Positions 45,565 through 63,220 are shown, counted from the stretch's first letter. The stretch is 64,000 nt of DNA from an uncultured Pseudomonadota bacterium (GCA_963843375.1 CAWJKT010000006.1:1-64000), one strand, 5' to 3'. Translations and numbers: made by a program. The notes: a model not told the origin generated them from the letters alone.

Positions 45565-45590
45565 GTTCGCGAAGGGTCCCCGTCTAGGAA
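45565..45590 (+). repeat. Cassette-boundary site 8 (degenerate, array end)
   Basis: GTTCGCGAAG-GGTCCC-CGTCTAGGAA. Confidence 0.7.
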
Positions 45591-45592
45591 AA

Positions 45593-46552
45593 TCAGCTTA
45601 TAACAAACACCACTCGGGATTTTCCGTGTTTTGCATTCCAAGCTTTCCCGACGTTGACGAGCGGAACAGCGGTTGTCTCGATCTGGAATTTACCGGGCAG
45701 AACCGCCTGCATCACATCGTTAGTCGCGGAGATTAGATCTTTCAGGGAAACACTTTTGATTCCGCTACCCATGAGCGCGATGGCCGAAGAACGAAGGGCC
45801 GCGCTAGGGAGCGTAATATTTGGCGAACTCATCGAGCCGATTTGGACGAAACGGATCGGCACGGCTTCTTTTCCCGCCTTTGCCCCGGCAATCATAATCC
45901 TCTCGGCGCTTGGTCCCCAGAGGTAATCCAAGACGACATCGACTCCATCACCTCCGAATTGCTCCTTTAAAGCGTCCTCAAAGGCGTCACCGCTATCACC
46001 GAGCGGGATGATCACCTCCGCGCCTAAACCCTTAACCTTTTGCAGGGAGTCAGAATCGCGGCCCGTGGCGATAATTTTTTTTGCGCCCAAATATTTCGAG
46101 ATTTGGACAGCCAGTTTTCCCGCATTTCCAGTTGCGCCATTGACCAGAACGATTTCACCCGCTTTGAATGCCGCCCGTATTCTGAGTGCCGCCATCGAAG
46201 ACATGCCGGGGTTAGCGATCGCCGCCGCGGTCACGTCGTCCACTTGGTCAGGCACAGGAAAACAGTTTTCCTTTCGAACGAGAACTTTTTCGGCCATGCC
46301 GCCGAAGGGAGCTGACGGCATCACGAAGTACAATCTTTTTCCATTCGAATTTTGGCCAACGCCGTCAATCCCAACCACCATGGGGAATAGGCTTGAAGAA
46401 CTGTAATGTTCACCTGAAGCCCGGGATTTCGCTAAGTTCGAGAGGGCGGATGCCTTGACGGTTATCAGTTCATGCCCCGCTTGGGCAGTTGGTTCCTTAA
46501 AATCCCCATAGACGGGCACTTGGTTAGGTCCGCTAACAATCGCAGCTTTCAT
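45593..46552 (-). CDS. Zinc-binding alcohol dehydrogenase / quinone oxidoreductase family protein
   Basis: VGIDGVG, AAAIANPGMSS, VNGATGNAG, DVVLDYLWG. Confidence 0.88.
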   Translation of the reverse strand: MKAAIVSGPNQVPVYGDFKEPTAQAGHELITVKASALSNLAKSRASGEHYSSSSLFPMVVGIDGVGQNSNGKRLYFVMPSAPFGGMAEKVLVRKENCFPVPDQVDDVTAAAIANPGMSSMAALRIRAAFKAGEIVLVNGATGNAGKLAVQISKYLGAKKIIATGRDSDSLQKVKGLGAEVIIPLGDSGDAFEDALKEQFGGDGVDVVLDYLWGPSAERIMIAGAKAGKEAVPIRFVQIGSMSSPNITLPSAALRSSAIALMGSGIKSVSLKDLISATNDVMQAVLPGKFQIETTAVPLVNVGKAWNAKHGKSRVVFVIS

Positions 46553-46594
46553 GATGAGTCTCCTTTCCAGTAGAAGAATTTCGAGTTTTCATTT

Positions 46595-46620
46595 GTCCGC
46601 GACGGGTCCCCGTCGTGGAC
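46595..46620 (+). repeat. Cassette-boundary site 9
   Basis: GTCCGCGACG-GGTCCC-CGTCGTGGAC. Confidence 0.9.
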
Positions 46621-46701
46621 AACCCATTACCTAACCCCCGAATTCCCCGGTGTTGAATTCCTGTGAAGCACAGGGGGAAGTCCGGGCCCCTAGATTATAC
46701 T

Positions 46702-47229
46702 TTAAGGGCTTTTTCGTGAATTCCTGGCACTCCGCCTATTTCCCTTTGGCCTTGACCCCATGTTTTTAATCCACCAATACTCATATTGATTAATGATTAT
46801 TTCTCGTCTTTTTAAATGAGAATCAGCAAGTTTTTGAAACGAGATATTTTCAATTTCCCCTTGGGTTAAGTTCATATTTTCATTCGATTTAAAATCATCT
46901 AACGTTCCAAACTGTTTATTAGTAATCTCCGATAATGCAAAGAATGCCGCAACCCGAATACTTGCTTTTGAATTGGACAAATATTTAATTAAATAAGAAA
47001 CCGCATCTTTTCCCATCTCAATCACATCTTTATATTCTTTTGGCTCAGAAATTATTGCCAAAGACATACGATTATCAATCCAATATTTGCCAAAACTCTG
47101 TACATTTTCGTTCGTAAAGTTTTCTATCTGAACTGGTACTTTTGTTTCGGCCAAACAAACTAATACGGATAGCAATGCACTGCCCCAGATAAAAATCTTT
47201 GAGAAAAAAATGAATTTCTTATTCGTCAT
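46702..47229 (-). CDS. AT-rich exported hypothetical protein with a HEAT-like repeat
   Basis: Signal peptide; MGKDAVSYLIKYL..IRVAAFFALSEIT. Confidence 0.65.
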   Translation of the reverse strand: MTNKKFIFFSKIFIWGSALLSVLVCLAETKVPVQIENFTNENVQSFGKYWIDNRMSLAIISEPKEYKDVIEMGKDAVSYLIKYLSNSKASIRVAAFFALSEITNKQFGTLDDFKSNENMNLTQGEIENISFQKLADSHLKRREIIINQYEYWWIKNMGSRPKGNRRSARNSRKSP

Positions 47230-47248
47230 TTATTCTTTCTAATCCTTT

Positions 47249-47274
47249 GTCCAATCCGGGCCCCCGTCGTGGAC
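47249..47274 (+). repeat. Cassette-boundary site 10
   Basis: GTCCAATCCG-GGCCCC-CGTCGTGGAC. Confidence 0.88.
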
Positions 47275-47288
47275 AACGCTTTTTCGTC

Positions 47289-47558
47289 TTATTCAAATAA
47301 ATCTGAATGTGTTCCGGTTCTTTCAAAAATGATTTCATTTGCAGAAAGCTTGTAAATCAAAAGCCAATCTGGTTCCAAATGGCATTCCCAGCGGTCCTTG
47401 TAATTCCCCGAAAGTTTATGATTCCGTAATCGAGCGTCCAAGACACTCTGAGCGATTAACCGATTGGCGACTTCCTTGAACTTTTCAACCGGTTTACCGC
47501 GCCGAAGCATCAACTTGAGGTCTTTTTGAAATTGATTGGTATAGGAAGGATTGAGCAT
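47289..47558 (-). CDS. yafQ: YafQ family mRNA interferase toxin
   Basis: FQKDLK, HKLSGNY, ECHLEPDWLLIY, RTGTHSDLF. Confidence 0.93.
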   Translation of the reverse strand: MLNPSYTNQFQKDLKLMLRRGKPVEKFKEVANRLIAQSVLDARLRNHKLSGNYKDRWECHLEPDWLLIYKLSANEIIFERTGTHSDLFE

Positions 47559-61594: not shown

Positions 61595-61825
61595 TGTTGC
61601 CTCCTGTTGAACGATTAGCATCGCTTACAGGAGGGATAATAAGAAAGGGGGTGGCAAATCATTTGCCTAATCCTACGAATGTTTGACCTAATACACCGGA
61701 AAGCTGTTGTTTTTATGGAGAGTGAAAGATTCGGGATATTTACGGCTTTTAGGAGGCGAGCAACGGCTGGGATGAACAATTAATGTATAAACTATTGGCC
61801 CGGACCCTTTGTTTCATTTTTCTTT

Positions 61826-61851
61826 GTCCACGATGGGTCCCCGTCGTAAAC
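61826..61851 (+). repeat. Cassette-boundary site 20
   Basis: GTCCACGATG-GGTCCC-CGTCGTAAAC. Confidence 0.85.
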
Positions 61852-61857
61852 AACCTA

Positions 61858-62286
61858 TTAAAATTTTTTATATAAAAAATAACGTTTGCTTCCCTTTGGA
61901 AAAGATTTTAAAGAACCAAATTTTTTAAATCCCATCTTCCGGTAAAATTCCGGGGCTTGGAAATCGAAAGTATCCAAATGGACATACCGGCACCCTCTTT
62001 TCCGCGCAATGGCTTGCGCCTTTTGGAGCAATTGGGTGCCTAATCCCTGGTTCCGGTTCTTTTCATTTACCCAGAGGGTCTTCACGAAAAGCCATCCCCA
62101 ATAGGTCCCGCTGACCAGCCCGCCCACTATTTTACCCTTGGGGTCGACGGCTTTCAGGTCCAGGTCCCGCCAATCGAGTCGACCAATATATTTCCTGTTA
62201 TAGGAATTGAGTTCCCGGCCAACGAAGTCCCTGAACCTCTTGTTAGGCGAGTTTACGGTTTTAATGGAGCCTGAAGCTTTTATCAT
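61858..62286 (-). CDS. GNAT family acetyltransferase
   Basis: LWVNEKNRNQGLGTQLL, LDTFDFQAPEFYRKMGF. Confidence 0.92.
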   Translation of the reverse strand: MIKASGSIKTVNSPNKRFRDFVGRELNSYNRKYIGRLDWRDLDLKAVDPKGKIVGGLVSGTYWGWLFVKTLWVNEKNRNQGLGTQLLQKAQAIARKRGCRYVHLDTFDFQAPEFYRKMGFKKFGSLKSFPKGSKRYFLYKKF

Positions 62287-62333
62287 GCCAACTCCTTTAC
62301 GTCATAAAAAATAGTCATCGCCAAAAAATGGTT

Positions 62334-62359
62334 GTCCACGACGGGTCCCCGTCGTGGAC
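62334..62359 (+). repeat. Cassette-boundary site 21 (perfect consensus)
   Basis: GTCCACGACG-GGTCCC-CGTCGTGGAC. Confidence 0.92.
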
Positions 62360-62379
62360 AGCTAAAATTCAATAAATAA

Positions 62380-63171
62380 TCAGGGCGGACTTGGTATTGA
62401 ATCCGAAGATTTCTCTGTTTCTTTTTTTAACCTTTGTTGCTTTTGATATTTAGAAAGATAGTTTTTATCGTACCAATCTTCCAATAACTTATTCCGGGGA
62501 TTATTGGGTCTTAAAAGCTCGTCAACTAAATCTTCGATATAGGGTACTGTGATCCCTTTCCCCATTCTTCCTATCAACTGTTCATCCTCATAGGGCAAAT
62601 TTAATCTTTTGCAATTAGGAATCCAGACTTCTTGAAAAAATTCATGGGCTTCTTGAATTGTGTCGTTTTCAATAACGCTATGCTCGATAACAAAAGCCTG
62701 GCGGTTAATCAGGCCCTTTTCTGCCTTATCATCAATTTTTAAAGACCGTTTTGAATTTTGAACATTAAAGAGTTCATAAAAAGCAGAAAACCAAAGCATA
62801 GGTCCACTTTTGGGTTCACCTTTATGATAGTTTTCCTGGGTAAAATTTTTAGTGACTTTAATCACTGCAAGCTTATGATTTTCATAGTCCGGCCCGGCCG
62901 AAACCGCATCCCATAAAGGTTCTGGATCACTAGGGTCCCATTGAACTTCACCCATACCGGCTTCTCCCGCAAATTGCCTAAGGGTCCAATTCCAAAGATC
63001 ATCCCCTTCTTTCACGTAAGGCGCCATGGCGGGCCGGTCATGGAGCATCTGTCGAAGCTGGGTCTCGCCCCAAGCCATCTGATCTTTGGTTAATGAAACC
63101 GGCTGATCTTGAGCTTTTATCGAAGTTCCAGAAATAAGGAAAATAATAAAAGCCACCAATAGCTTTTTCAC
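62380..63171 (-). CDS. Exported hypothetical protein
   Basis: Signal peptide; 263 aa ORF filling one inter-site interval. Confidence 0.7.
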   Translation of the reverse strand: MKKLLVAFIIFLISGTSIKAQDQPVSLTKDQMAWGETQLRQMLHDRPAMAPYVKEGDDLWNWTLRQFAGEAGMGEVQWDPSDPEPLWDAVSAGPDYENHKLAVIKVTKNFTQENYHKGEPKSGPMLWFSAFYELFNVQNSKRSLKIDDKAEKGLINRQAFVIEHSVIENDTIQEAHEFFQEVWIPNCKRLNLPYEDEQLIGRMGKGITVPYIEDLVDELLRPNNPRNKLLEDWYDKNYLSKYQKQQRLKKETEKSSDSIPSPP

Positions 63172-63194
63172 ACTAATTTCCTTTCAAAATAGCT

Positions 63195-63220
63195 GTCCAC
63201 GACGGGTCCCCGTCGTGGAC
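63195..63220 (+). repeat. Cassette-boundary site 22 (perfect consensus)
   Basis: GTCCACGACG-GGTCCC-CGTCGTGGAC. Confidence 0.92.

Follow-up and report, generated by a model that had tools for sequence, protein, structure and literature searches.

We analysed the first 64 kb of contig C6 (CAWJKT010000006.1, positions 1-64000; hereafter the window, 64,000 nucleotides) of genome G000 (GCA_963843375.1), an assembly of an uncultured soil bacterium of candidate division FCPU426 (4.05 Mb, 80% complete), in which a series of genes at 45565-63220 is punctuated by copies of a 28-bp site. A preliminary description had listed 15 co-oriented copies and had interpreted the stretch as an integron-like array of gene cassettes. 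We searched for the site in two ways: with a consensus allowing up to three mismatches in the window, using 100 shuffles as the control, and with a position weight matrix built from 61 genomic copies, using the reversed whole genome as the control. The consensus search gave 12 matches in the window, i.e., 10 of the 15 listed sites and two further positions, 11738 and 24545, and matches appeared in 0 of the 100 shuffles. The weight matrix recovered all 15 listed positions on the plus strand with 18.7-51.9 bits, compared with a maximum of 10.7 bits in the reversed genome.

All sites of the array lie on the plus strand, and the genes between them lie on the minus strand unless stated otherwise. 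The downstream end of the array is a degenerate terminal site with a 26-bp core (45565..45590, 25.1 bits), which adjoins a DEAD-box helicase gene (43546-45456). Cassette 1 (45593..46552) encodes a zinc-type alcohol dehydrogenase-like oxidoreductase of 319 aa (PF00107) with its stop codon 2 nt from the site, and a site of 46.6 bits follows at 46595..46620. Cassette 2 (46702..47229) encodes a 175-aa protein without a Pfam family, for which a 94% identical copy is present in another genus (G018); the next site, 47249..47274, carries the alternative left arm GTCCAATCCG. A YafQ toxin/RelB antitoxin pair constitutes cassette 3 (47289..47818) and is separated by the site 47885..47910 from cassette 4 (48091..48605, plus strand), a HigB-like (Gp49) toxin with a helix-turn-helix antitoxin that is reversed relative to the array. 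Beyond a degenerate site of 18.7 bits (48655..48680), module 5 (48843..50967) consists of an IS30-like transposase gene (48843-49742, plus strand) beside an NHL-repeat protein gene (49885-50967, minus strand). After a site with the alternative left arm (51051..51076), module 6 (51099..54012) contains a 96-aa open reading frame (ORF), a 528-aa leucine-rich repeat (LRR) protein and a 343-aa protein without a family. The site 54282..54307 precedes cassette 7 (54316..54951), in which a PIN toxin gene (54316-54690) is accompanied by an upstream antitoxin ORF, and a GNAT acetyltransferase (cassette 8, 55006..55434) lies between the sites 54952..54977 and 55468..55493.

The remaining cassettes follow the same pattern. 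Cassette 9 (55536..56228) encodes a PhyH-type 2-oxoglutarate-Fe(II) dioxygenase, 91% identical to a copy in G015, and is followed by the site 56290..56315. A 124-aa protein without a family (cassette 10, 56385..56759) is followed by a perfect consensus site (56786..56811), and an aldo/keto reductase (cassette 11, 56819..57670) by the site 57705..57730. Module 12 (57775..61621) comprises five genes, encoding an AraC regulator, a CMD protein, an F420-type oxidoreductase, a short-chain dehydrogenase/reductase (SDR) and an aldo/keto reductase, and is separated by the site 61826..61851 from a second GNAT acetyltransferase (cassette 13, 61858..62286). Perfect consensus sites at 62334..62359 and 63195..63220 enclose cassette 14 (62380..63171), a 263-aa protein without a family, and cassette 15 (63224..63846) combines a PIN toxin gene (63224-63706) with an overlapping upstream ORF. 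According to Pfam, the cargo of the array comprises four toxin-antitoxin (TA) units, two GNATs, two aldo/keto reductases, the dehydrogenase, the PhyH, NHL and LRR proteins, the five-gene unit, the IS30-like transposase gene and several proteins without a family.

Several details of the preliminary description were revised. It had closed the array at 63220; however, a shortened site crosses the window edge (C6:63986-64011, plus strand), and beyond it a 405-aa gene cassette (C6:64090-65307) is bracketed by this shortened site and a half-site at ~C6:65382, which is the far end of the array. The array reaches ~C6:65.4 kb, past the window edge. The distances of 2, 3, 6, 7, 8 and 14 nt between the stop codons of minus-strand ORFs and the right ends of sites were reproduced. 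Starts had been placed 19-47 nt from the left end of the site, which held for six of seven; for the seventh, the start given there for cassette 8 at 55434, the longest ORF (55006-55473) runs to a GTG at 55473 inside the site 55468. Similarly, all sites are intergenic when shorter starts are adopted, whereas sites 54952 and 55468 overlap the longest ORF calls. The cargo is mostly on one strand, as reported, except for the HigB/HigA-like cassette and the IS30-like transposase gene.

Two further observations concern module 5. A copy of the IS30-like insertion sequence (HTH_38 and rve domains, window 48780-49830) with 89% identity is present in another genus (G018), and G001, G042 and G045 contain parts of it. 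In one public contig, 813 bp inside the NHL-repeat gene (window 49917-50731) are missing and the joint has 33 shared letters, a pattern that resembles variation in repeat number through recombination between the repeats of the gene itself.

The site consists of an 11-bp arm, the asymmetric 6-bp spacer GGTCCC and a second 11-bp arm, in agreement with the 11-6-11 geometry described earlier, and its consensus in the plus orientation is T-GTCCA-nnnn-G-GGTCCC-CGTCGTGGAC-AA(C). The conserved arm, CGTCGTGGAC, adjoins the stop codon of the preceding gene, and the other (left) arm is variable. There is almost no variation at positions 0-4 and 9-27, and 52 of 77 sites have GGTCCC as the spacer; at positions 5-8, several versions of the left arm exist (CGAC 22, ATCC 12, CGAA 7, CGAT 7 and others). 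In contrast to the integron boundary motif, the AAC is outside the arm and not inside it. A co-directional ORF ends within 60 nt before the conserved arm at 55 of 85 sites, and an ORF on the other strand at 23 of 85. Among the site matches listed for five other genomes, nearly all retain the 26-bp core spacing. Longer sites with a core of 49-50 nt were found in G043 and G042 and are rare exceptions; an attC-like standard form based on them was rejected for this reason. In some sites, ~20-60 nt of additional sequence separate the spacer from the conserved arm, at G000 C9:256446-256562, 268908-268990 and 269993-270075 and elsewhere at G043:C21:5842-5891 and G042:C26:78223-78271; three split copies within one array carry related insert sequence.

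We then considered whether the fold of the site is conserved. Arm pairing was equal to the expectation for independence at all 10 arm positions across the 77 sites, i.e., the arms do not covary, and a full stem is possible in only 12 of the 77. The arms of 235 metagenomic sites likewise paired at the level expected for independence, in a set that the search pattern biases toward palindromic copies. In addition, the would-be loop is the best-conserved portion of the site. When terminator-like structures (a GC-rich hairpin and a T tract on the gene strand) were sought, only sites 62334 and 63195 qualified, and such patterns were not enriched in the region (21 found versus 26.8 expected from shuffles). 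An Rfam scan of the window matched no family at the sites or elsewhere in it. Taken together, the lack of arm covariation, the few terminator-like sites and the lack of an Rfam match indicate that the element is defined by its sequence, as expected of a duplex site that a protein binds, rather than by a fold.

Next, we compared the cassettes with other genomes. Single cassettes of the array have copies in other genera at 85-94% nucleotide identity, whereas identity to the congeneric genome G001 is only 80-83% for the core genes next to the array. The YafQ/RelB cassette is present in six other genomes as 85-90% identical copies, with the same sites on both sides and different neighbours in four of the six. 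Copies of the HigB-like cassette 4 are 88-92% identical (G042, G012 and G022). The PIN cassette 7 has 79-87% identical copies at six other loci, three of which retain both flanking sites, and the PIN cassette 15 has 83-86% identical copies in G012, G042, G022 and G005, with both flanking sites at one of the four loci. The five-gene module 12 is syntenic at ~72% identity in G041, G003, G005, G010 and G016. Across 20 fetched loci, homology stops at the sites and the neighbours differ; that is, gene order is not conserved across the sites. The 405-aa gene with its own downstream site, which forms the array end in G000, is a lone insertion in G001 between genes that are adjacent in G000.

Junctions were examined by aligning contigs of four public runs from three studies to the array. 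The public runs X1 and X2 contained 89% of the words sampled from window 54200-63300. The junction 56298->54291 was present in all four runs (three studies), with sides of 255, 228, 41 and 56 nt. It combines the left arm of site 56290 with the right arm of site 54282 into a hybrid site, with the nine letters GGGTCCCCG, shared by both parent sites, at the joint. In one contig, 54309-56282, which holds three cassettes, was swapped for 367 other letters between the same two sites. Moreover, loose ends of contigs pile up at site edges (47246/47277, 51075, 54309, 56782/56814 and 62330/62363). These results support the conclusion that the modules behave as cassettes, as had been proposed: they recur between the same sites with other neighbours, and their breakpoints lie in or at the sites.

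The array as a whole was compared with G001, in which the two array-flanking genes are on different contigs and no array lies beside either. The junction near C6:3041 showed no site when inspected against G001; therefore, no clean empty site could be defined for the whole array. Relative to G001, the helicase gene 43546-45456 is inverted, and its distance from the NHL-like gene at 3041 is ~40 kb greater. Part of another contig of G000, C22:1564-5076, is duplicated at the start of contig C6 (window 1-3041), which suggests a redundant assembly or a bin that contains two strains.

The G000 genome contains 85 full sites and 13 half-sites, 98 in total, and 76 of them lie in seven clusters that together cover 101 kb, or 2.5% of the 4.05-Mb assembly. 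Scattered copies throughout the genome, which would have spoken against the proposal, were not what we found. Within the clusters, the sites share one orientation in 17/17 (the window array), 22/24, 9/9, 8/8, 7/7, 4/4 and 5/7 cases. Besides the array, the window holds a second, looser and oppositely oriented group of sites on the minus strand (7562, 11738, 12835, 14237 and 18598), together with a copy at 13405 with a 5-nt spacer and one at 24545 on the plus strand; the two window groups converge. Of 24 genomes sampled from the family, 19 contain an exact 17-mer of the site, as does the single sister-family genome; none of the 15 genomes that represent eight other families of the phylum contains it. 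A relaxed search added a few sites in G003, G019 and G024, and G017 (97% complete) and G007 had no cassette site at up to three mismatches. At the other extreme, G018, G001 and G045 each have more than 30 sites. In metagenomes, 71 non-redundant stretches (404 kb) were collected, in which 160 of 164 neighbouring site pairs are co-oriented and the median site spacing is 757 bp. The array ends adjoin ordinary genes, such as rpsP-trmD-rplS, ruvC-ruvA, cytochrome oxidase, ack-xfp and polysaccharide genes. The 634 ORFs from 77 array-bearing stretches include almost no recurrent family, the largest being present in nine stretches.

Read in the direction of the genes, each unit consists of a variable half-site, a short leader, an ORF or TA pair, a stop codon and a conserved half-site (CGTCGTGGAC and AAC on the plus strand), and units strung head to tail generate complete 28-bp sites in direct repeat between them. 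We consider it fairly probable that this is a chromosomal, integron-like cassette system that uses sites of the dif/lox type and is served in trans. A recombinase encoded elsewhere, probably a tyrosine recombinase, would bind both arms as duplex DNA and exchange strands within the spacer. Recombination between two direct sites would release the intervening units as a circle with one hybrid site, and the circle could then be inserted at any other site. Orientation would be set by the asymmetric spacer, and this would account for the co-orientation of the arrays. We infer the circular intermediate, the class of the enzyme and its action in trans from the geometry of the sites and from the junctions.

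Several results weigh against this reading, and its weak point is the enzyme, as no candidate recombinase could be tied to the sites. A Pfam scan of 103 ORFs within ~10 kb of the array ends in this genome gave no recombinase family, and tblastn with the 14 tyrosine recombinases of this genome gave no match in the 404 kb of metagenomic arrays; the tyrosine recombinase suggested in the preliminary description is a deduction from the site geometry and is not supported by a gene. No shared attI-like sequence beyond the site itself was present upstream of the first site in eight array heads. In a separate scan, one array, on C18, ended 1.2 kb from a 516-aa integrase-like gene. Other cassette copies have one site, decayed sites or no recognisable site. 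The insertion of the 405-aa gene in G001 has one recognisable site only and the empty G000 locus has none, which is not predicted by strict site-by-site insertion. The junctions come from short-read contigs and not from reads, in which a circle and a reordered array are indistinguishable. Four junctions with sides of ~31 nt (51082->54281, 62360->54951, 62363->63192 and 63223->56783) were set aside: with repeated sites, three of which have identical sequences in this array, such short joints are ambiguous. Finally, group II intron 5' regions (RF02003; 60.9 and 55.3 bits against a 49-bit cut-off) at L176:3262-3394 and L180:1297-1433, in two other genera, begin within a few bases of the variable arm of a site. 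Class C group II introns choose stem-loops or hairpins; since intron 5' ends abut the sites, palindromic site copies may, by analogy, also act as hairpins.

Fragments of the same intron element lie beside sites in G000, at window 12680-12842, C18:59761-59865 and C9:252513-252617, and no reverse-transcriptase ORF was seen next to these fragments.

Specific candidates for the recombinase were examined and rejected. The 516-aa integrase on C18 was read as part of a separate integrated element, which a DUF5906 gene and a tRNA-Ser adjoin. This genome has six paralogous SAM_5 integrases of ~370 aa, three of which are located 1.4-3.2 kb from a lone site; however, the orthologue of C6:226038 was near a site in 0 of 13 other genomes with fetched context, and G021 has 27 sites with only one distant paralogue. 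Such ~370-aa integrases are widespread in the family; G001 has eight tyrosine recombinases, namely the Xer-like protein, six integrases of this size and one of 432 aa. Trios of recombinases and tandem pairs resembling XerC/D exist in some genomes only, and beside sites only in G012. Serine recombinases fail as a universal partner, as none was found in G023 or G005. Likewise, the Y1 transposase (PF01797) is present in G001 and G021 and in 0/3 of G000, G018 (99% complete) and G023. Both enzyme types are therefore lacking in nearly complete genomes with many sites. Two side observations arose from this search. The protein of the integrase gene C6:226038-227153 matches its orthologue in G001 at 96% identity and the copies in four further genera at 83-90%, far above the 73% identity of the Xer-like orthologue to G001, and these sequence identities suggest recent exchange of the element between genera. 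In G003 (99% complete), all four sites lie in one 17-kb stretch (G003:C1:1319788-1337031), which also carries an integrase and a defence-like (restriction-modification) island with methylase, helicase and HNH genes; this co-location is suggestive, but it did not recur elsewhere.

The standard example of cassette-based gene capture is the integron, whose defining parts are IntI and folded attC sites. The arrays resemble integrons in that co-oriented cassettes moving as units were found here, the cargo is diverse and rich in TA pairs and acetyltransferases, several arrays are present per genome, different arrays and taxa have cassettes in common, and sites can have a group II intron beside them; group IIC introns insert at integron attC sites, a parallel to the intron ends at the cassette sites. 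Integrons, especially sedentary chromosomal ones, and clusters of attC sites lacking integron integrases (CALINs; IntegronFinder, PMC4889954) likewise consist mainly of one-ORF cassettes whose leaders are very short and whose recombination site directly follows the stop codon. The arrays could accordingly be ordinary integron relics, i.e., CALIN-type attC clusters whose integrase was lost or is on unbinned DNA. The architecture and the cargo of TA pairs, GNATs and orphans, as in sedentary chromosomal integrons, favour this explanation, as does the near absence of recurrent families among the 634 ORFs, and metagenome-assembled genomes often lose plasmids. However, no integron integrase reached the cut-off (NCBIfam TIGR02249, 265 bits) in any of 31 family genomes, the best match scoring 84.5 bits, and this set includes a 99% complete genome of five contigs with dozens of sites. 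An attC site is an imperfect hairpin of ~55 nt or more with a conserved structure and a variable sequence, whereas the site here is 28 bp long, is conserved across genera in sequence and not in fold, and does not have the RYYYAAC...GTTRRRY arrangement (motif as quoted in the preliminary description). The arrays begin behind core genes and have no attI/promoter platform and no recombinase gene at their ends. The preliminary description was right that these are not attC sites, and we regard integron relics as a very improbable explanation. An unlikely explanation, although not to the same degree, is that the site is a REP-like (repetitive extragenic palindromic) or terminator-like hairpin behind genes that stabilises or ends RNA and spreads alone or by a transposase of the REP-associated tyrosine transposase (RAYT) type, exchange being a by-product of recombination between short repeats. 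As with REP elements, the site is a short, GC-rich, intergenic palindrome in many copies just past stop codons, with an orientation that follows the gene; the intron 5' ends directly beside sites and the Y1 transposase genes of G001 and G021 also agree with a hairpin. In contrast to REP elements, the arms are not kept complementary, only 12/77 sites pair fully and the would-be loop is conserved best. The terminator-like sites in the gene direction are limited to two, below-expectation pattern counts accompany them, and Rfam offers no match. In addition, 78% of the sites are clustered in 2.5% of the genome, in accessory arrays, and neither a RAYT in the site-richest genome (G018, which has the most sites among the first 24 sampled genomes) nor a Y1 transposase in G018, G000 or G023 was found.

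The third explanation is that the sites are dif-like and are served by the host Xer, with no dedicated enzyme, as in the dif modules (pdif sites) of Acinetobacter plasmids. The XerC/XerD dif modules of Rep_3 plasmids have 28-bp 11-6-11 sites bounding small accessory or TA modules, recombinases that are not encoded with the modules, and crossovers centred on the sites (PMC13141974, PMC6449649), all of which is shared here. The flanking sites of dif modules are inversely oriented, with C and D modules alternating (PMC13141974), whereas 160/164 neighbouring sites here are direct repeats (17/17 in the window array), and dif modules are carried on plasmids whereas these arrays are chromosomal and in an unrelated phylum. 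G000 encodes a single Xer-like protein (C10:182366-183469; 153 bits to XerC, below the curated cut-off), which is the only tyrosine recombinase that was found in nearly all genomes of the family. It is present in 23/24 family genomes and the sister family at 55-79% identity, compared with matches of only 27-35% in other families of the phylum, and this spread mirrors that of the site. These findings, the geometry with one conserved and one variable arm, and the lack of an array-side recombinase, as expected for a housekeeping enzyme, are in favour of the host Xer. However, a perfect, AT-rich 11-6-11 palindrome (C10:182387-182414) lies directly at the 5' end of the Xer-like gene. This palindrome occurs once in the genome, has no sequence relationship to the cassette site, and is kept beside the gene in 12/14 genomes of the family and sister family with palindrome-preserving changes. 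Judged from these sequences, the palindrome, located next to the gene, probably serves as the chromosomal dif for an Xer system with a single recombinase. Given this conserved, single-copy palindrome, the cognate site of the Xer-like protein is probably the palindrome and not the cassette site; pdif, by contrast, resembles the host dif. Moreover, G017 and G007 carry the Xer-like gene without the cassette site. We consider service by the host Xer quite unlikely.

The inverted arms around a short asymmetric spacer that gives direction are also known from Cre/loxP, FLP/FRT and single-recombinase Xer/dif systems. In those systems, a replicon carries one or a few sites, which are used for resolution, inversion or integration; unlike here, they do not form arrays of dozens of gene cassettes. 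By the features that define each of them, the system does not fit an integron, a dif module or a REP/RAYT element. A literature search, in which most subscription journals were not covered, found no paper with the site sequence or with FCPU426 cassette arrays. We return to the cassette system served in trans. It is possible, and we propose it tentatively as a view that may well prove wrong, that it represents a second, independent invention of the integron principle: a platform-less, genome-wide network of arrays with no linked integrase, with one trans-acting recombinase or possibly an enzyme of unrecognised class, a duplex site of the lox/dif type, family-wide conservation and cassette exchange between genera.

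An architecture like that of integrons, with a short duplex-type site and no local integrase, suggests that cassette platforms are more general than the integron family and that tools keyed to IntI or attC miss such arrays. The 28-bp site is compact and directional and has many natural variants; together with its partner enzyme, once that is found, it could become a useful recombination tool. For the ecology of peat and soil, these arrays point to a shared pool of accessory genes that moves between FCPU426 genera.

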